From Escherichia phage vB_EcoP-101120B2, in sequence record MZ234023.1: 39,899 nt of DNA, one strand, 5' to 3'. The first letter of the stretch is position 1. Each line of letters begins with the position of its first letter. The position numbers and the translations under genes were made by a program. Shown piece after piece: positions 3,368-18,540 of this stretch. The notes beneath the pieces were generated by a model, which did no database searches, was not told where the DNA came from, and was given only the letters and a program-made list of their open reading frames with translations.

Positions 3368-5899
3368 ATGTCCACGATTACACAATTCCCTTCAGGAAAC
3401 ACTCAGTACAGGATTGAGTTCGACTACCTAGCCAGAACGTTTGTTGTTGTTACGCTGGTGAATAGCTCTAACCCTACCCTGAACCGTGTACTGGAAGTTG
3501 GTCGAGATTACCGATTCCTTAATCCAACGATGATTGAGATGTTGGTTGACCAATCAGGTTTCGACATAGTTCGTATTCACCGTCAGACTGGAACTGACTT
3601 AGTGGTAGATTTCAGGAATGGCTCAGTGTTGACAGCTAGTGACCTGACCAATTCAGAGCTTCAGGCTATCCATATTGCAGAAGAAGGTCGAGACCAAACG
3701 GTTGACTTAGCGAAGGAATATGCCGATGCTGCTGGTAGCTCTGCTGGCAACGCTAAGGATAGCGAGGACGAAGCACGCCGAATCGCTGCGAGTATCAGGG
3801 AAGCTGGTCTAATTGGCTATATTACCCGTCGCTCCTTCGAGAAAGGCTACAACGTTACAACATGGAGCGAGGTCCTGCTATGGGAAGAGGATGGTGATTA
3901 TTACCGCTGGGATGGTACGCTTCCAAAGAACGTTCCTGCTGGTTCAACTCCTGAAACTTCCGGTGGGATTGGATTAGGTGCGTGGGTTAGTGTTGGTGAT
4001 GCTGCTTTAAGAAGTCAGATTTCAAACCCGGAAGGGGCAATACTCTACCCGGAATTGCAGATGGCAAGATGGCGTGATGAGGGTGATGTTCGAGGCTGGG
4101 GTGCTAAAGGGGATGGTGTAACAGATAGTACGGAGAATATAGCTGCTTCACTAAGTTCTCAAAAAGCTGTCGTAGCATCAGAAGGTGTATTCTCTAGTTC
4201 TGGTATTAATAGTAATTACTGTAACTTAGACGGTAGGGGTAGTGGCGTGCTAAGTCACCGTTCCAGTACAGGTAACTACTTAGTATTTAACAATCCACGT
4301 ACAGGTCGCTTAAGTAATATTACGGTAGAAAGTAATAAGGCGACTGATACAACTCAGGGACAGCAGGTATCTCTTGCGGGTGGAAGCGATGTTACTGTAA
4401 GTGACGTTAACTTCTCAAACGTTAAAGGTACTGGTTTCAGTTTAATCGCATACCCTAATGATGCGCCACCTGATGGACTTATGATTAAAGGCATTCGAGG
4501 TAGCTATTCCGGCTATGCTACTAATAAGGCAGCCGGATGCGTACTTGCTGACTCCTCAGTTAACTCCCTCATAGATAACGTTATTGCTAAGAACTACCCT
4601 CAGTTCGGAGCAGTAGAGTTGAAAGGTACAGCCAGTTACAACATAGTCAGTAATGTTATAGGGGCAGATTGCCAGCATGTAACTTACAACGGCACTGAAG
4701 GGTCAATAGCTCCTTCTAATAACATTATAAAGGGGGTGATGGCTAATAACCCTAAGTATGCAGCGGTTGTTGCAGGCAAAGGAAATACTAACTTAATCTC
4801 AGACGTGCTCGTAGATTACTCAACTTCTGATGCTAGCCAGGCTCATGGCGTTACCGTAGAAGGGTCTGATAACGTCATAAATAATGTGCTTATGTCAGGA
4901 TGTGATGGTACTAACTCTTTAGGACAAGGGCAGACTGCTACAATTGCACGCTTTATAGGTACAGCTAATAACAACTATGCGTCTGTATTTCCTAGCTACA
5001 GTGCTACAGGTGTTATTACTTTCGAATCCGGCTCTACCCGTAACTTCGTAGAGGTAAAACACCCTGGCAGGAGAAACGACCTTCTCAGTTCTGCTAGTAC
5101 TATTGACGGTGCAGCTACTATTGACGGCACTAGTAATAGTAACGTAGTGCACGCACCTGCCTTAGGGCAGTACATAGGTAGTATGTCAGGTAGGTTCGAA
5201 TGGTGGATTAAGTCCATGTCACTCCCTTCAGGCGTTCTTACTTCTGCTGATAAGTACAGAATGCTTGGGGATGGTGCTGTGTCATTAGCTGTAGGTGGTG
5301 GTGCATCTTCTCAAGTTCGACTATTTACTTCTGATGGTATTTATCGGACAGTGTCCCTCACCAACGGCAACGTGCGTCTTCCTACCAGTAGCACAGGTTA
5401 TTTGCAGTTAGGTTCTAATGCAATGACCCCAGATAGTACTAATACATACGCATTAGGTTCCGCAAGTCGAGCATGGTCTGGCGGTTTTACTCAATCAGCA
5501 TTCACTGTTGTCTCAGATGCTAGGGATAAAACAGAGCCTCTTAATATCTCAGATGCTTTACTGGATGCTTGGTCTGAAGTTGACTTTGTGCAGTTTCAGT
5601 ACTTGGACCGAATTGAGGAGAAGGGTGCAGACTCAGCTAGATGGCACTTCGGCATCATCGCTCAGCGAGCTAAGGAGGCCTTCGAACGTCACGGTATAGA
5701 TGCACATCGCTATGGCTTCCTGTGCTTCGACAGTTGGGATGATGTATACGAGGAAGATGCCAATGGCTATCGTAAACTGATTACACCAGCAGGTTCCCGC
5801 TACGGTATTCGTTACGAGGAAGTACTGATATTAGAGGCTGCGTTGATGCGGCGTACTATTAAGCGTATGCAGGAAGCATTAGCTGTTATGTCTAAGTGA
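3368..5899 (+). CDS. Tail fibre / tailspike: gp17-like N-terminal adaptor + putative beta-helix depolymerase domain + C-terminal intramolecular chaperone (peptidase S74-like)
   Basis: 843-aa ORF with AAAGGAGG RBS. N-terminal ~150 aa resemble T7 gp17 (YLARxFVVVTL, LVDFxxGSxL, AEEGRD). Central region has the GWGAKGDGVTD motif typical of pectate-lyase-like tailspikes. C-terminus has the SDARDK motif (5513-5530) and an ~125-aa tail like autoproteolytic chaperone domains of endosialidase-type spikes. Confidence 0.85.
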   Translation: MSTITQFPSGNTQYRIEFDYLARTFVVVTLVNSSNPTLNRVLEVGRDYRFLNPTMIEMLVDQSGFDIVRIHRQTGTDLVVDFRNGSVLTASDLTNSELQAIHIAEEGRDQTVDLAKEYADAAGSSAGNAKDSEDEARRIAASIREAGLIGYITRRSFEKGYNVTTWSEVLLWEEDGDYYRWDGTLPKNVPAGSTPETSGGIGLGAWVSVGDAALRSQISNPEGAILYPELQMARWRDEGDVRGWGAKGDGVTDSTENIAASLSSQKAVVASEGVFSSSGINSNYCNLDGRGSGVLSHRSSTGNYLVFNNPRTGRLSNITVESNKATDTTQGQQVSLAGGSDVTVSDVNFSNVKGTGFSLIAYPNDAPPDGLMIKGIRGSYSGYATNKAAGCVLADSSVNSLIDNVIAKNYPQFGAVELKGTASYNIVSNVIGADCQHVTYNGTEGSIAPSNNIIKGVMANNPKYAAVVAGKGNTNLISDVLVDYSTSDASQAHGVTVEGSDNVINNVLMSGCDGTNSLGQGQTATIARFIGTANNNYASVFPSYSATGVITFESGSTRNFVEVKHPGRRNDLLSSASTIDGAATIDGTSNSNVVHAPALGQYIGSMSGRFEWWIKSMSLPSGVLTSADKYRMLGDGAVSLAVGGGASSQVRLFTSDGIYRTVSLTNGNVRLPTSSTGYLQLGSNAMTPDSTNTYALGSASRAWSGGFTQSAFTVVSDARDKTEPLNISDALLDAWSEVDFVQFQYLDRIEEKGADSARWHFGIIAQRAKEAFERHGIDAHRYGFLCFDSWDDVYEEDANGYRKLITPAGSRYGIRYEEVLILEAALMRRTIKRMQEALAVMSK

Positions 5900-5925: not shown

Positions 5926-6123
5926 ATGAAATCGTTGAACACACTGACGAGGAGGGTAATGTCACTACTACGGAAGAACCTGTATACACCGAGGTGGTTA
6001 TTCACGAAGAGGGTGAGGAGTGGGGGTGTTCGGCCTGACGGAATTTTCTTTGCTGAAGCCGCTTATCAGAGAAGAAAACTGGAAAGAATCGAAGCCAGAC
6101 TTTCTGCTCTTGAACAGAAGTAA
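5926..6123 (+). CDS. Hypothetical small basic protein (start uncertain: GTG 5896, ATG 5926 or ATG 5959)
   Basis: ORF in a ~330-bp gap between tail fibre and holin that T7 lacks. GAGGAGGG precedes ATG 5959 but with very short spacing. Highly basic, Arg/Lys-rich product. Confidence 0.3.
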   Translation: MKSLNTLTRRVMSLLRKNLYTPRWLFTKRVRSGGVRPDGIFFAEAAYQRRKLERIEARLSALEQK

Positions 6124-10540: not shown

Positions 10541-10648
10541 TCCGTCAACACGACACGGCAACAACCGGATAGTGAAGACGCCGGGTCATCCCGGTTAAGT
10601 AGACAGCCTGATAAGTCATACGAACAACAGGCAGATGACAGAAAGTAG

Positions 10649-13043: not shown

Positions 13044-13050
13044 TTATGAC

Positions 13051-13072
13051 TTAACTATCACTATAGGACTCA
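13051..13072 (+). promoter_or_regulatory. Phage RNAP promoter immediately upstream of the RNAP gene
   Basis: TTAACTATCACTATAGGACTC, 70 bp upstream of the gene 1 start codon. Followed by a repeat-rich leader (AAGTGAAAGAC x2, GACTTTAAGT x2). Confidence 0.6.
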
Positions 13073-13140: not shown

Positions 13141-15822
13141 ATGAGCGTCATCTCTATTGACAAACACGACTTCTCTGATGTGTCGAACGCCATTGAGCCG
13201 TTTAACCTGCTGGCTGACCACTACGGGCAAGACCTTGCAGTCAAACAGCTTCAGCTTGAGCATGAGGCCTACACTGAAGGTGAGCGACGTTTCATCAAGA
13301 ACCTTGAGCGTCAGACCGAGCGAGGGGAACTGGCAGACAATCAGGTCGCCAAGCCTTTGATGCAGACTCTGGTTCCTAAGATTGCGCAAGCCGTCAAGGA
13401 GTGGCACGAAGGTCCAGACGGGAAGCTGTCAACCTCACGTCCGAGCGTAGCGTTCACCATGTTAAGCACTGAAGAGAAGGCCGTCAAGGACCGCTCTCTT
13501 CGCATCTCCTGCGAGTCTGCTGCGGTTATCATACTGAAGGTCATCCTCTCCAAGCTGGTCAAGCCTGAAGGTATACCGATTACACCGATGGCCTCCGCGA
13601 TAGGTCGCACACTTGAGGATGAAATCCGATTCGGTCGCATTCGTGACAAGGAGAAGGAGCACTTCAAGAAGGCGATAGCTGATAACCTGAACAAGAGAGC
13701 CGGGGCATCATACAAGAAAGCCTACATGCAAGCGGTCGAGACATCCATGCTGGAGCAAGGCCAACTAGAAGATGCGTGGGGAACTTGGAGTCCGACCGAG
13801 GCTGTCCACGTTGGAATCAAGATGCTGGAGATTGTCATACAGTCAACACAACTGGTCGAGCTTAAGCGTTACGGTGCTGGCAATGCAGCGGCTGACGTTG
13901 AGATGGTCCACCTGTCAGACTTCTGGGTCAAGAAGATGGCACAACGAGGATTCAGCCTTGCGGGTATCGCCCCAGTCTACCAGCCTTGCGTCGTTCCGCC
14001 TAAGCCGTGGACTGGTGTCGTAGGCGGTGGGTATTGGGCCAAAGGTCGAAGACCATTGCCACTGATTCGCTTAGGGTCTAAGTCTGCGGTAGCACGTTAT
14101 GAAGACGTATACATGCCTGAAGTCTATGAAGCTGTGAATATCATCCAGAATACACCTTGGAAAGTGAACAAGAAGGTATTGGACGTGGTGAACAGGGTCG
14201 AGAAGCTGAACAACACGCCTATTAATGACATCCCTCAGATGGAACCGCTGAAGCCTGAGGACTATGCTGGTGAAACCGAGGAGGAACTCAAGGCATGGAA
14301 GAAGGCTGCTGCTGGTATCTATCGCCGCGAGAAGGCCAGACAGTCACGCAGATTATCACTGAGCTTTATCGTTAACCAAGCAAACAAGTTCTCTCAGTTC
14401 AAGGCCATCTGGTTCCCGTACAACATGGATTGGCGAGGTCGTGTCTACGCTGTCCCGATGTTCAACCCTCAGGGTAACGACATGCAGAAGGGGCTCCTGA
14501 CTCTGGCAGTCGGCAAGCCTATTGGTGCTGACGGTTTCAAATGGCTGAAGGTCCACGGTGCAAACTGTGCGGGTGTCGATAAAGTCACCTTCGATGAGCG
14601 CATCAAGTGGGTGGAAGACAACCACGAAAACATCATGGCTGCTGCTAAGGCACCGATGGATAGCATTGAGTGGTGGGGCAAGTTAGACTCTCCGTTCTGC
14701 TTCCTAGCGTTCTGCTTCGAGTATGCTGGCGTAATGCACCACGGCTTGTCTTACTCCTGCTCGCTGCCGATAGCGTTCGATGGGTCCTGCTCTGGGATTC
14801 AGCACTTCAGCGCTATGCTTCGCGACCACATCGGTGGACATGCAGTAAACCTGACGCCATCCGGTAAGGTCCAAGACATCTACCGCATCGTGTCTGACCG
14901 CATTGAGGAGGAGCTTAAAGTCCTACTGGTTAACGGTACGGACAACGAGATGGTAACTCACGAGGACAAGAAAACTGGTGAGATTACCGAGCGTCTCAAG
15001 CTGGGGACACGAGAGCTTGCCCGTCAGTGGCTGACCTACGGTATGTCACGAAAGGTCACTAAGCGTTCGGTCATGACTCTGGCCTACGGGTCGAAAGAGT
15101 ACGGCTTCGCAGACCAAGTTTACGAGGACATCGTGATGCCAGCGATTGACTCAGGGTCTGGCGCTATGTTCACTGAACCAAGCCAAGCAGCTCGCTTCAT
15201 GGCTAAGATGATTTGGGAAGCTGTGAGTGTGACCGTAGTTGCTGCGGTTGACGCGATGAAATGGCTTCAGGGTGCTGCCAAGCTGCTTGCTGCTGAAGTG
15301 AAGGACAAGAAGACTGGAGAAATCCTGAAGCCTTGTCTTCCGGTACACTGGGTCACACCTGATGGTTTCCCTGTCTGGCAGGAATACCGAAAGAAGGACA
15401 CCACTCGTCTGAACCTGATGTTCTTAGGGTCATTCAACCTTCAGCCTACCGTCAACAAAGGCACGAAGAAAGAGCTGGACAAGCACAAGCAGGAGTCAGG
15501 CATTAGCCCGAACTTCGTCCACTCACAAGATGGTAGCCACCTCCGCAAGACTGTAGTCCACACGCACCGCAAATATGGCGTGATGTCATTCGCAGTGATT
15601 CACGATAGCTTCGGGACCATCCCGGCTGACGCTGAGTATCTGTTCCGTGGAGTCCGTGAGACGATGGTCGAGACCTACCGCGACAACGATGTGCTGCTTG
15701 ACTTCTACGAGCAGTTTGAATACCAGCTTCACGAGAGCCAGAGAGACAAGTTGCCTGAGCTTCCTAAGAAAGGTAAACTGAATATCGAAGACATCTTGTC
15801 TTCAGACTTTGCATTCGCTTAA
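13141..15822 (+). CDS. Single-subunit DNA-dependent RNA polymerase (gp1)
   Basis: 893-aa ORF. Extensive identity to recalled T7/T3 RNAP (YMPEVYEAVNIIQNTPWKVNKKVL, WFPYNMDWRGRVYAVPMFNPQGNDM, HGANCAGVDKV, FAVIHDSFGTIPADA, C-terminal SDFAFA). Confidence 0.95.
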   Translation: MSVISIDKHDFSDVSNAIEPFNLLADHYGQDLAVKQLQLEHEAYTEGERRFIKNLERQTERGELADNQVAKPLMQTLVPKIAQAVKEWHEGPDGKLSTSRPSVAFTMLSTEEKAVKDRSLRISCESAAVIILKVILSKLVKPEGIPITPMASAIGRTLEDEIRFGRIRDKEKEHFKKAIADNLNKRAGASYKKAYMQAVETSMLEQGQLEDAWGTWSPTEAVHVGIKMLEIVIQSTQLVELKRYGAGNAAADVEMVHLSDFWVKKMAQRGFSLAGIAPVYQPCVVPPKPWTGVVGGGYWAKGRRPLPLIRLGSKSAVARYEDVYMPEVYEAVNIIQNTPWKVNKKVLDVVNRVEKLNNTPINDIPQMEPLKPEDYAGETEEELKAWKKAAAGIYRREKARQSRRLSLSFIVNQANKFSQFKAIWFPYNMDWRGRVYAVPMFNPQGNDMQKGLLTLAVGKPIGADGFKWLKVHGANCAGVDKVTFDERIKWVEDNHENIMAAAKAPMDSIEWWGKLDSPFCFLAFCFEYAGVMHHGLSYSCSLPIAFDGSCSGIQHFSAMLRDHIGGHAVNLTPSGKVQDIYRIVSDRIEEELKVLLVNGTDNEMVTHEDKKTGEITERLKLGTRELARQWLTYGMSRKVTKRSVMTLAYGSKEYGFADQVYEDIVMPAIDSGSGAMFTEPSQAARFMAKMIWEAVSVTVVAAVDAMKWLQGAAKLLAAEVKDKKTGEILKPCLPVHWVTPDGFPVWQEYRKKDTTRLNLMFLGSFNLQPTVNKGTKKELDKHKQESGISPNFVHSQDGSHLRKTVVHTHRKYGVMSFAVIHDSFGTIPADAEYLFRGVRETMVETYRDNDVLLDFYEQFEYQLHESQRDKLPELPKKGKLNIEDILSSDFAFA

Positions 15823-15837
15823 CAACAGGAGAAGTAT

Positions 15838-16068
15838 ATGTCAATGAAACTTGTAGCACACAACAGGGTATTCAACGATGGGTCGGGACGTTGCCATGTA
15901 GAGCTGACTTATAAGGATTTAATCATTCTCCGAGACAGATTACAGTCGGGTGTGACTGGGTGGATTCAACCTAACGAGTACAACCTTATAGCTTCGATTG
16001 ATGAAGTTCTTAACGCGTGGATGGAAGACGAGCGCATTCAGTATCCGTCATTCCCTCTAATTAGATAA
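15838..16068 (+). CDS. Hypothetical protein
   Basis: 76-aa ORF with AGGAG RBS directly after gene 1. T7 has no gene here. Confidence 0.55.
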   Translation: MSMKLVAHNRVFNDGSGRCHVELTYKDLIILRDRLQSGVTGWIQPNEYNLIASIDEVLNAWMEDERIQYPSFPLIR

Positions 16069-16078
16069 GGAGAGAGTT

Positions 16079-16294
16079 ATGAAATTTGCACACAAGCATA
16101 CTGGCGTTAATGGTGGGACTCAAATCGTGACCGTAACAGAACACAACGGCAAGGGTCTGGTGAAGACCACGGTCATCCCTACCGAGATGTCCAAGCAGCT
16201 TAACATCCCGTTCAAGACTCTTGTATATCTGGTCGAGTCCAGCCACGAGAAGTACCTGAAGGACGCAGTGTCCAAGCTGGAGCAGGCCAAATGA
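16079..16294 (+). CDS. Hypothetical protein
   Basis: 71-aa ORF with AAGGAG RBS. No homolog recognised. Confidence 0.55.
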   Translation: MKFAHKHTGVNGGTQIVTVTEHNGKGLVKTTVIPTEMSKQLNIPFKTLVYLVESSHEKYLKDAVSKLEQAK

Positions 16295-16371
16295 CAGACA
16301 TACAGTTACTGGCCCTGTGGCTGGGAGCACTCGCAGTATTCACTTTAATCCAACGCAGAAGAGGTTAACCC

Positions 16372-16392
16372 TAAACTATCACTATAGGCTTA
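16372..16392 (+). promoter_or_regulatory. Phage RNAP promoter (phi1.1 equivalent)
   Basis: TAAACTATCACTATAGGCTTA. Confidence 0.7.
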
Positions 16393-16436
16393 GACTCAAG
16401 GTCATGACTCAAAGTCGTGGCCTTCATGATTAACCC
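16393..16436 (+). promoter_or_regulatory. Probable RNase III processing site (R1.1 equivalent)
   Basis: GACTCAAGGTCATGACTCAAAGTCGTGGCCTTCATGATTAACC, second copy of the conserved motif, between promoter and gene 1.1 as in T7. Confidence 0.4.
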
Positions 16437-16465
16437 TAAATAAACACTACTGGAGATTTAACCGT

Positions 16466-16645
16466 ATGTATCAGAACACTATCAACTTCGAGCGCATCCG
16501 TGAACGTCAGCAGACTGAAGGTTACATCCCTAAGGGCCGCAAGCTGAACAAGACTAAACGTGGCGGTGGTATCAAAGGCGCTTTCAGAAACGCTGAAGGT
16601 AAAGACTCTCTGGTCAACCAAGAGAAATACTTCGTAGGAGCATAA
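16466..16645 (+). CDS. gp1.1-like small basic protein
   Basis: 59-aa ORF (below ORF-track cutoff) with GGAG RBS. Contains GRKLNKTKR, matching recalled T7 gp1.1. Confidence 0.6.
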   Translation: MYQNTINFERIRERQQTEGYIPKGRKLNKTKRGGGIKGAFRNAEGKDSLVNQEKYFVGA

Positions 16646-16649
16646 CTCT

Positions 16650-16913
16650 ATGGGCCGACTTTATAGTGGCAACCTCAACGCTTTCAGAGCAGCGTGTAAC
16701 AGGCTTTATCAGTTAGACTTCTGCGTGATACAGCAGGACTGGTACGACGCGCATCTTCGGAAAGAGTGCATGAGACTTCAAGTCGAGGACCGAGCTGGTA
16801 ACATCTTCGCGCTTGAGACCTTCGCACACTACGATGAAGACGTGCTGTATAATACCGCAACCGACTACCTCAACGGTCTCGCTGACCATCTCGACACATG
16901 GAGCAAAGAATAA
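16650..16913 (+). CDS. gp1.2-like inhibitor of host dGTPase
   Basis: Product begins MGRLYSGNLNAFRAACNRLYQLDF, as recalled T7 gp1.2 does, and is the same size (87 vs 85 aa). Confidence 0.8.
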   Translation: MGRLYSGNLNAFRAACNRLYQLDFCVIQQDWYDAHLRKECMRLQVEDRAGNIFALETFAHYDEDVLYNTATDYLNGLADHLDTWSKE

Positions 16914-18001
16914 TGACAACTATCAAAACTAACCCTCACCGCGCTGTAGATTACTCTGAGTCTGGAATTAAGAAGGCACTGGAAGCAGCCGGGTCTCTGG
17001 AAGCTGAAGTGAAGTACGATGGTGTGCGCCTGAACCTCCTGGTCCTGCGTGAAGGTGAGACCTACTGGCTTAGCCGCGAGTCGAAACCTCTACCAGCCTT
17101 GGAGTGGATGAACTCTGAGTTAGGTAATGCGTGGACCCAAGCTGACTGGCGATGGTTCCTGCGTCAATCCGGCTACGAAGGTGTGGGCATGATGATTGAT
17201 GGCGAGGTCATGGTCAAAGGTGTAGACTTCAACACCTCCTCAGGTCTCATCCGAACGAAGTGGCTCAAGCCTAACAACGAGGAGTTCGCTGAATACTATT
17301 CGCCGGCGACTGGTGGAAAGAAGCTCCCGTTCTGGGGATCCCGGTCACGACTTCAGGTTGTGGTATATGGCGTTGTCGATATGACAACCATAGCAGACCC
17401 GAAAGCAGAAGGTCCTATCCATAGCGTAACCCGCCTGAAGGCTGAAGCTATCGTCCCTCTCCTCCAGAAATACTTCCCGGAAATCGACTGGGTTCTGTCT
17501 GAGTCACACACGGTCTATGACCTTGAGTCGCTCAACTCCCTGTACGAACAGAAGCGTCTGGAAGGACATGAGGGTCTGGTAGTCAAGGACCCACTGGGTA
17601 AGTACAAGCGTGGCAAGAAGTCTGGCATGTGGAAAATGAAGCCTGAGGAGACCATCGACGGGACCGTGTGTGGCCTCGTGTGGGGGACTCCTGGTAAGGC
17701 TAACGAAGGTAAGGTCATCGGCTTTGAGGTTCTACTGGAGGATGGCATGGTGGTCAACGCCTGTGGTCTGACTGAAGAACAGAAGGACGAGTTTACGGCT
17801 AAGGTCAAGGAGGACACGCTTGCTGCGGTTGGCATCTTTGCGCCGTACGGCATTGGTGGTAACGAACCTTGCTTCGATAACCCATACGAAGGCTGGCAGT
17901 GTGAAGTCCTCTTCATGGAGAGGTTCCCTGATGGCTCCCTTCGTCACCCCAGCTTCAAGTGCTGGCGTGGAACCGAAGACAACCCAACGGTGAAGTCATG
18001 A
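16913..18001 (+). CDS. ATP-dependent DNA ligase (gp1.3)
   Basis: Strong similarity to T7 ligase including adenylation motif EVKYDGVR and EGHEGLVVKDP. Start placed at ATG 16913 (MTTIKTNPHR) by homology; the ORF-track start 16898 is an upstream alternative. Confidence 0.9.
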   Translation: MTTIKTNPHRAVDYSESGIKKALEAAGSLEAEVKYDGVRLNLLVLREGETYWLSRESKPLPALEWMNSELGNAWTQADWRWFLRQSGYEGVGMMIDGEVMVKGVDFNTSSGLIRTKWLKPNNEEFAEYYSPATGGKKLPFWGSRSRLQVVVYGVVDMTTIADPKAEGPIHSVTRLKAEAIVPLLQKYFPEIDWVLSESHTVYDLESLNSLYEQKRLEGHEGLVVKDPLGKYKRGKKSGMWKMKPEETIDGTVCGLVWGTPGKANEGKVIGFEVLLEDGMVVNACGLTEEQKDEFTAKVKEDTLAAVGIFAPYGIGGNEPCFDNPYEGWQCEVLFMERFPDGSLRHPSFKCWRGTEDNPTVKS

Positions 18002-18177
18002 GTACACAACTTTATATCAACATAGCAAGTGGTCAACTCTACGCTGTGGTAAATGGCGAGCTGTGGTATCGTAAACTCAAGAAGTGGGCCAAGTCCTACT
18101 ACGATGAAGAGACAATATCAACCATGAGTAATCGCTACCGTAAGGCTGCTAAGGTGAACAACTTTAAGATGCGTTAA
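17998..18177 (+). CDS. Hypothetical small protein
   Basis: 59-aa ORF with ATG overlapping the ligase stop. The ORF track extends it to 17959. Confidence 0.45.
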   Translation: MSTQLYINIASGQLYAVVNGELWYRKLKKWAKSYYDEETISTMSNRYRKAAKVNNFKMR

Positions 18178-18181
18178 CGTC

Positions 18182-18215
18182 AACCCAGTGGTCTTAGGAC
18201 TGCTGGGTTTCTTTG
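18182..18215 (+). terminator. Intrinsic terminator, candidate early terminator (TE equivalent)
   Basis: AACCCAGUGG / CUGCUGGGUU stem (~10 bp with G-U pairs), 8-nt loop, followed by TTTCTTTG. Lies at the end of the early/ligase region. Confidence 0.55.
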
Positions 18216-18237
18216 CTTCTGGGCCACCAGCTAGACC

Positions 18238-18259
18238 CTAAGCTATCACTATAGGACAA
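18238..18259 (+). promoter_or_regulatory. Phage RNAP promoter
   Basis: TAAGCTATCACTATAGGACAA. Confidence 0.7.
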
Positions 18260-18285
18260 CCCTAACCGACCAAAGGAGAAACCTT

Positions 18286-18540
18286 ATGTCTAAAAACTTA
18301 ATGTTCAACCGATCTACTCGAAGCTTCCACCTGTCGCATAGCCCATTCAGCTTCCATAAAGCTAATCAACCATTACCCCGCTTTGGTAAGACAGTGGCTC
18401 TGTCTCCAGCAGTTCATGCGCTAGTCACCCGCAAGTCTATGCTGAAGGCTATGGATAAAGAACAAGTTGATGTGCCTGTGGTCATTACAAAATGGCCTCG
18501 CATTAAGCTGGCACTTCTGGTAATTAAGGAGGCGCTCTGA
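18286..18540 (+). CDS. Hypothetical protein
   Basis: 84-aa ORF with AAGGAGA RBS. Confidence 0.5.
   Translation: MSKNLMFNRSTRSFHLSHSPFSFHKANQPLPRFGKTVALSPAVHALVTRKSMLKAMDKEQVDVPVVITKWPRIKLALLVIKEAL

Follow-up and report, generated by a model that had tools for sequence, protein, structure and literature searches.

Conserved small open reading frames, including one for a predicted 25-residue membrane microprotein, between gene 1 and gene 1.1 of a K1F-like coliphage

Introduction

Does the interval between gene 1, the RNA polymerase (RNAP) gene, and gene 1.1 hold genes in K1F-like phages, and if it does, what might their products do? In T7, gene 1 ends at position 5822 and gene 1.1 starts at 6007, and only the promoters phi1.1A (5848) and phi1.1B (5923) lie between them, with no annotated open reading frame (ORF). 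We asked the question of a 39,899-nucleotide (nt) stretch of DNA from Escherichia phage vB_EcoP-101120B2 (MZ234023.1), hereafter the window, in which a first-pass annotation had pointed to two "unrecognised" ORFs of 76 and 71 amino acids (aa) behind gene 1, each with a strong ribosome-binding site (RBS), and to a possible hydrophobic ORF of 25 aa overlapping the stop codon of the second. All three, here called ORFs A, B and C, are present in the window where they had been placed, each with a GGAG-type RBS, and the accompanying remark that T7 has no coding sequence in this slot is borne out by the T7 map.

Comparison with related phages shows ORFs A, B and C as conserved open frames, with purifying selection confined to each one's own frame, the pattern expected of protein-coding DNA. 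ORFs A and B proved to be known already as catalogued hypothetical proteins; they are annotated coding sequences (CDSs) in many records, match families of the PHROGs collection and have their exact sequences in NCBI and UniRef, so that "unrecognised" does not describe them. What is new is ORF C as a conserved gene, together with a correction of the labels "gp1.1" and "1.05" that ORF B carries in several genomes.

Results

ORF C (16291-16368, plus strand; peptide MTDIQLLALWLGALAVFTLIQRRRG) is 25 aa long and begins with an ATG that overlaps the TGA of ORF B (ATGA), 8 nt behind a GGAG (16279-16282, plus strand) that lies within the last codons of ORF B. Our survey of this frame covered 76 instances of the locus, which represent 51 DNA haplotypes and 33 peptide variants. 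The frame is open over 25-26 codons in every instance but one, a frameshifted low-quality record. The start codon is ATG in 73 instances and GTG in 2 and always overlaps the ORF B stop codon, as ATGA or GTGA. Upstream of it, at RBS distance, GGAG or GAGG recurs in nearly all relatives despite their differing ORF B C-termini. The stop codon holds its position, whether written TAA, TGA or TAG. Variable sites number 17, 9 and 19 at the first, second and third codon positions, the second being the lowest, and the Leu codons swap freely and synonymously between CTN and TTR. The ratio of nonsynonymous to synonymous differences (pN/pS; here and below from pooled pairwise Nei-Gojobori estimates) is 0.29 in the frame of ORF C and about 1 in the two other plus-strand frames. 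The hydrophobic ORF that had been noted only as a possibility is thus very probably a gene, as judged from its conservation and its own-frame selection.

The same stretch could also be conserved for another reason. ORF C might be non-functional as a peptide and its translation incidental, with the conservation due to an element acting as DNA or RNA, such as sequence upstream of a promoter, part of the primary replication origin, or mRNA structure. The primary replication origin of T7 is located at phi1.1A/B, and the region matches the T7 origin and promoter region in position. Moreover, the block that starts in the last codons of ORF B, takes in the promoter and hairpin and reaches gene 1.1 has a mean identity of about 92%, even where ORF B is 45% identical, and ORF C is very short, so that its pN/pS comes from few sites. 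An element of this kind does not readily account for variation that follows the codons, with the second position the lowest, synonymous Leu exchanges and three different stop codons at one fixed place, nor for a pN/pS of about 1 in the two other frames. The most divergent orthologue, from the locus labelled L062 (VTDNQLWLTLWSAFLITFIVFQRRRG), has a GTGA overlap, 60% nt identity and a one-codon insertion, and it nevertheless keeps the MTD start, the hydrophobic core and the QRRRG end; 15 of 25 residues are identical to those of the window, 7 of them written with different codons. ORF C also persists where its surroundings change, as in the two loci from which the promoter and hairpin have been deleted (L051 and L056), in the relatives where a gene of 155-174 aa sits 4 nt past its stop codon, ahead of the promoter, and in L080 despite a near-complete deletion of ORF B. 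Finally, the regions upstream of the ten other promoters of the window are unrelated to ORF C. A purely nucleic-acid role is disfavoured because the variation is codon-structured, and we consider it improbable, although the adjoining block is highly conserved as well.

Taking ORF C as a gene, its product has a hydrophobic core of 15-17 residues, with a Kyte-Doolittle mean of 2.1-2.5 over 15 residues in all three alleles, between an N-terminal MTD and a basic C-terminal QRRRG. A hydrophobic segment combined with charge asymmetry is what is looked for in a single-pass membrane microprotein, and ORF C has both, the length of its core being at the short end for this class. On these features ORF C is a conserved, predicted membrane microprotein gene that is almost universally unannotated across the genus. 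It resembles single-pass membrane microproteins such as KdpF, PmrR, MgtS and AcrZ and the type I toxins TisB and Ibs in its 25 aa, its one hydrophobic segment and its positive cluster at one end; the likeness is one of class only, as ORF C has no sequence similarity to any catalogued family. As regards a cis-encoded antisense RNA, as in type I toxins, a scan of 15500-18500 gave no sigma-70-like antisense promoter within ORFs A-C.

No match to ORF C was found in PHROGs, in Pfam (E<=1) or in NCBIfam, and both the ORF C of the window and the commonest variant are absent from a collection of 15 billion proteins. Among the records checked, it is annotated only in GA2A (YP_009324944.1) and IMM-002 (MF630921). 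The latter record annotates overlapping CDSs on both strands over this stretch, and it alone gives ORF C the label "DUF2842", which we do not adopt, as no Pfam family matches at E<=1. A different ORF is called here in MZ234011, vB_Aba_01KA and other records, namely an out-of-frame ORF of 38 aa with a GTG start (16317-16433, plus strand; MAGSTRSIHFNPTQKRLTLNYHYRLRLKVMTQSRGLHD). This ORF overlaps ORF C and crosses the promoter and hairpin, the pN/pS in its frame is about 1, and relatives with the gp1.05-like insertion described below do not retain it. The call is probably spurious and stands where ORF C should have been annotated.

ORF B (16079-16294, plus strand) encodes a basic protein of 71 aa (pI 9.5) behind a Shine-Dalgarno sequence, AAGGAG (16067-16072, plus strand), which lies 6 nt before its ATG and overlaps the stop codon of ORF A. 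The genus carries it as a core early gene, and it belongs to PHROG 8082 (E=4.7e-42, residues 1-66 on positions 1-66 of the 66-position profile). Homologues with identity down to 42% occur in 219 phage records, and ORF B is also represented in 157 protein clusters. Among 71-aa copies the pN/pS is 0.15 in the frame of ORF B against 1.76-4.58 in the other plus-strand frames; among 66-aa copies the corresponding values are 0.36 and 1.31-1.48. The AlphaFold2 (AF2) model is confident, with a mean predicted local distance difference test (pLDDT) score of 92.4, and consists of three antiparallel beta strands and two helices, one short and one long. No function follows from this fold. The structural matches (LptE, type III secretion chaperones, IclR, AP2 and HPF) share a generic substructure and were rejected as functional evidence, a BFVD fold search returned uncharacterised phage proteins only, and comparison of the ORF B profile with PDB sequences gave only noise (E>0.3).

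ORF B is annotated as a hypothetical protein in MZ234011, EcoDS1, ASO2B, K1F and others, under the name "gp1.1" in K1F, EcoDS1 and Dev2 and "1.05" in CR44b. These entries and PHROG 8082 are the same protein, the identity of ORF B to the K1F "gp1.1" being 98.6%, and neither name fits it. ORF B has no match to the T7 gp1.1 family PF08200 (Pfam, E<=1), and its alignment to T7 gp1.1 with hhalign has a probability of 0.2%; it is PF08200 that matches the next gene, at 16466-16645 (plus strand; 59 aa, E=6e-11), which is the true gene 1.1 homologue. Nor does ORF B match PF25755, the T3 gp1.05 family, which is matched instead by a separate gene of 164 aa downstream of ORF C in L062. Both labels on ORF B are, by these family assignments, positional misnomers.

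One contig departs from the common pattern. In L080 (Logan SRR31227532, 39,021 nt; segment 1501-1779), a deletion of 232 nt fuses ORF A at about codon 66 in frame to the last nine or so codons of ORF B, whose stop codon TGA is changed to TGC; ORF C is intact, with the substitution T2P. The variant may be natural or an artefact of assembly. If real, it suggests that the folded domain of ORF B is dispensable under some conditions.

ORF A (15838-16068, plus strand) encodes an acidic protein of 76 aa (pI 5.5), and the Shine-Dalgarno sequence read 6 nt before its ATG is AGGAG (15827-15831, plus strand). It belongs to PHROG 28104 (E=2.1e-56, residues 1-76 on positions 1-76 of the 76-position profile), which also holds the EcoDS1 "unknown product" ACF15786, the same protein at 93% identity. 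Its distribution is narrower than that of ORF B, with homologues at 84-100% aa identity in 39 phage records. It is annotated as a hypothetical protein in MZ234011, EcoDS1, ASO2B and others. The pN/pS is 0.43 in its own frame against 0.93-1.94 in the other plus-strand frames. ORF A is an optional early gene, a cassette that is present or absent in a fixed slot after gene 1. K1F, for example, is without it, and its ORF B begins 14 nt past gene 1; comparison with K1F shows a clean insertion or deletion with similar RBS sequences at both ends.

When 1.84 billion representative proteins were searched with an HMMER profile of ORF A, four real remote homologues came up, all from phages and 75-86 aa long (P0130, P0131, P0133 and P0134); a repeat protein of 1640 aa that matched in nine short stretches was discarded as spurious. 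All four have 37-51% identity to ORF A and occupy the same slot, each directly behind a T7-type RNAP gene, and an ORF B homologue comes next in L060-L062, while the contig of L063 stops at ORF A. An iterated profile search of 5.8 billion proteins gave 16 clusters only, which carry no annotation beyond "hypothetical" and show no tie to any named family; where the contig is long, it measures about 40 kb, as a T7-like genome does. PHROG 28104 is hence a very small family, limited to the slot directly after gene 1 of Kayfunavirus-like phages, and has no function or confident fold. The predicted model of ORF A is weak (pLDDT 66.5), with a beta-hairpin and two helices, and its fold-search matches are helical-hairpin noise; against PDB sequences its profile likewise gave only noise (E>0.3). 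ORFs A and B are not paralogues (hhalign probability 0.5%).

For synteny, the DNA between the stop codon of gene 1 and the start codon of gene 1.1 was taken from 52 loci, which amount to 38 unique sequences. The layout is constant in these, with ORF A, where present, followed by ORF B, ORF C, an optional gp1.05-like gene, promoter, hairpin and gene 1.1. ORF A is found only in the size class with an interval of about 645 nt. All 38 have ORF B (of 66 or 71 aa) together with ORF C, a co-occurrence that is a product of sampling by construction, because the loci were found with ORF A, ORF B or the conserved hairpin as anchor and the sample thus favours carriers of ORFs B and C. Counted over phage records, ORF C is found in 175. 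In the loci of the remote homologues, the C-terminal 190 residues of RNAP are 91-99% identical to the window, as against 37-51% for ORF A and 45-80% for ORF B, which indicates that A and B are selected genes evolving much faster than their neighbours.

Could the three simply be frames left open by chance in a spacer, or the remains of decaying genes? ORF length by itself carries no significance here, given that frames of similar size arise by chance in the window, such as the antisense ORF of 89 aa that covers all of ORF B (16061-16330, minus strand); in addition, T7 does without all three and most Kayfunaviruses lack ORF A. The antisense ORF is interrupted by stop codons in most relatives, where the longest open run is 49-92 codons, and is therefore not a gene. 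The three sense ORFs stand above chance because of their conservation and frame-specific purifying selection. They are conserved over their full length with their ribosome-binding sites, orthologues at 37-56% identity hold length and position, and ORF B has a confident AF2 fold. Frameshifted copies occur only in records in which the RNAP gene is fragmented too, which marks these as low-quality assemblies. The comparative data effectively refute an origin as chance frames or remnants, and we give that origin almost no weight.

The interval 15700-16500 is identical (100%) to that of Escherichia phage vB_EcoP-22664UKE3-2 (MZ234011) and 91-99% identical to those of about 40 further genomes of Kayfunavirus (K1F-like, Studiervirinae), and on this basis the window is a Kayfunavirus, a K1F-like coliphage of the T7 family. 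Its gene 1 (13141-15822, plus strand; TAA stop at 15820-15822) encodes a T7-type RNAP of 893 aa, and gene 1.1 is followed by gene 1.2 (16650-16913, PF10922) and the ligase gene (16898-18001). The window is circularly permuted relative to the K1F convention, as is the MZ234011 deposit; gene 1, whose start is at 2566 in K1F, begins at 13141 in the window, which puts the left end of the genome near window position 10,600. For several records of near-identical sequence in this region the stated host is unlikely (Acinetobacter phage vB_Aba_01KA, Staphylococcus phage MBBL139 and Enterococcus phage EFA-1), and the RefSeq name for the T7-type gene 1 is "N4-like RNA polymerase"; these are probably errors of annotation or host assignment.

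Directly past ORF C lies a K1F-type phage RNAP promoter (16371-16393, plus strand), made up of the core CTAAACTATCACTATAGG (16371-16388), which matches the consensus exactly, and an initiation region. The core occurs at 11 sites in the window, where 0.01 would be expected by chance. ASO2B and CR44b both have a promoter annotated at the 16371 site. Its +1 position is predicted, by analogy with T7, to be G16387, and it is the analogue of T7 phi1.1A/B and T3 phi1.1. The first-pass annotation had called it the first class II promoter. It is indeed the first one downstream of gene 1, but a near-consensus copy with one mismatch (CTTAACTATCACTATAGG; 13050-13067, plus strand) already lies 74 nt before gene 1, so that the promoter at 16371 is not necessarily the first on the map. 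The upstream copy is followed by GACTCAAGGTC, a motif also found behind the 16371 promoter, and ASO2B has a copy with two mismatches at the equivalent place before gene 1, which is unannotated in its record. If active, the 13050 promoter would provide positive feedback on RNAP synthesis and transcription of ORFs A-C by the phage RNAP.

The transcript from 16371 would begin with a stem-loop (16386-16437, plus strand; -21.9 kcal/mol, z=-2.6) whose sequence is nearly invariant across relatives and which is, by analogy with T3, a probable RNase III processing site corresponding to R1.1. The intrinsic terminator annotated here in ASO2B was rejected, since no T-run follows the stem-loop and a terminator scan made no call. 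No Rfam family matched within 15700-16700 at E<=1. A direct repeat of 20 nt flanks the hairpin (16365-16384, TTAACCCTAAACTATCACTA; 16430-16449, TTAACCCTAAATAAACACTA; both plus strand; spacing 65 nt), the second copy, immediately ahead of the gene 1.1 RBS, resembling a degenerate promoter, an arrangement that recalls the tandem phi1.1A and phi1.1B at the primary origin of T7. From gene 1 onward, the scan found no terminator-like site before a hairpin at 18182-18209 (plus strand), which has a GC-rich stem of 12 bp and then a T-rich tract, lies after the ligase gene and an ORF of 72 aa, and sits where T7 has its early terminator, TE. With no terminator before 18182 and a promoter at 13050, ORFs A-C probably share the transcripts of gene 1, made by the host RNAP as well as by that of the phage.

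The slot ahead of the 16371 promoter also takes up larger insertions. Many Kayfunaviruses have, 4 nt past the ORF C stop codon, a gene of 155-174 aa that is T3 gp1.05-like (PF25755; gp1.05 or gp1.06). Its carriers in our sample are L002, L005, L023, L028, L032-L039, L052, L053 and L062, the slot corresponds to about 16369 in the window, and the window itself is without it. Together with the insertion or deletion of ORF A, this makes the interval from gene 1 to the promoter a hotspot of gain and loss. The loci L051 and L056 (Enterobacter phages 04_vB_Eclo_IJM and 02_vB_Eclo_IJM) lack the promoter and hairpin block, and their gene 1.1 starts 2 nt past the ORF C stop codon; this looks like a deletion between TTAACC repeats, and both are low-quality records with fragmented RNAP genes. 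In T3 and phiYeO3-12, the gene 1.05 region resembles the window in that extra coding sequence lies between gene 1 and phi1.1 and is followed by the R1.1 stem-loop and gene 1.1. There is, however, no sequence relationship, as ORFs A, B and C have no PF25755 match.

Discussion

We favour, with more confidence than doubt, a reading in which ORFs A-C are three real small proteins of the early operon that are translated in series and bind host components, with ORF C in the inner membrane. The segment 15838-16368 would then be the tail of the gene 1 transcription unit, expressed early with gene 1 from transcripts of the host RNAP and from the phage promoter at 13050. ORF A, with its acidic charge, beta-hairpin and two helices, and ORF B, with its basic charge, three-stranded sheet and two helices, would both be non-catalytic and could bind and modulate macromolecules of the host, of its defences or of a competitor. 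The analogy is with small T7 proteins that work by binding a host protein, namely Ocr/gp0.3, gp0.4, gp1.2, gp2 and gp5.5 from the early and class II regions, and gp5.7; ORFs A and B are like them in small size, lack of a catalytic domain, early position in the genome and fast evolution, although there is no homology between the two sets. By this analogy, the binding of host or defence components is the most likely mode of action of ORFs A and B, and the fast pace at which they evolve relative to the neighbouring genes is what one would expect of proteins engaged in conflict with the host. ORF A, as an optional cassette, may be an accessory gene for host range or anti-defence.

ORF C would insert into the inner membrane in an orientation that leaves the N-terminus outside and the RRRG tail on the cytoplasmic side, and it may act on a membrane-associated host function, possibly with the co-translated ORF B. 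The overlap of its start codon with the ORF B stop codon is the arrangement expected for coupling by termination and reinitiation. A more specific proposal is that ORF C is made by such reinitiation and that ORFs B and C form a pair, one soluble and one in the membrane, acting on the host envelope or a membrane-associated function early in infection. We put this forward tentatively, as an idea that is more apt to fail than to hold. Such a pair might be aimed at membrane energetics or at a defence or exclusion factor bound to the membrane.

Several observations weigh against the reading favoured above. A classical transmembrane helix would usually be longer than the 15-17 residues of the ORF C hydrophobic core. 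Among close relatives, its DNA is unusually conserved along with the adjacent promoter and hairpin block, and constraint at the level of DNA or RNA may therefore add to the signal of selection; the pairwise sums behind the pN/pS values are, moreover, phylogenetically non-independent. Searches of Pfam and NCBIfam with ORFs A-C and of PDB sequences with ORFs A and B were empty, and no match by homology or fold leads to a target. ORFs A and B were not found in the supplements of two phage accessory-gene screens. The literature searched held no functional data on ORFs A-C and no ribosome profiling (Ribo-seq) or proteomic data for any Kayfunavirus.

It is also conceivable that ORF B, with or without ORF A, serves the phage itself, as a nucleic-acid-binding regulator of its own programme at the promoter, the origin, the RNase III site or the ribosome, rather than being directed at the host. 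Against this, the DNA block that ORF B would bind changes far more slowly than ORF B itself. The contig of 39 kb in which ORF B is almost wholly deleted (L080), if real, also makes an essential regulatory role unlikely. We therefore regard a role of ORF B in the phage's own programme as a minor alternative, with little likelihood, to the host-directed binding proposed above.

In summary, ORF C should be added as a CDS in Kayfunavirus genomes and the 38-aa GTG ORF at 16317-16433 dropped. K1F, LM33_P1 and similar Kayfunaviruses feature in the literature on phage therapy and phage engineering, and there is practical value in knowing which small early genes are dispensable or bear on host range. 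Should the proposed pairing of ORFs B and C prove true, the T7 group would have a host-takeover module that has escaped standard annotation in nearly all genomes. A conserved 25-aa peptide, predicted to lie in the membrane and encoded in the early region of a T7-family phage, offers a tractable test case for phage microproteins.

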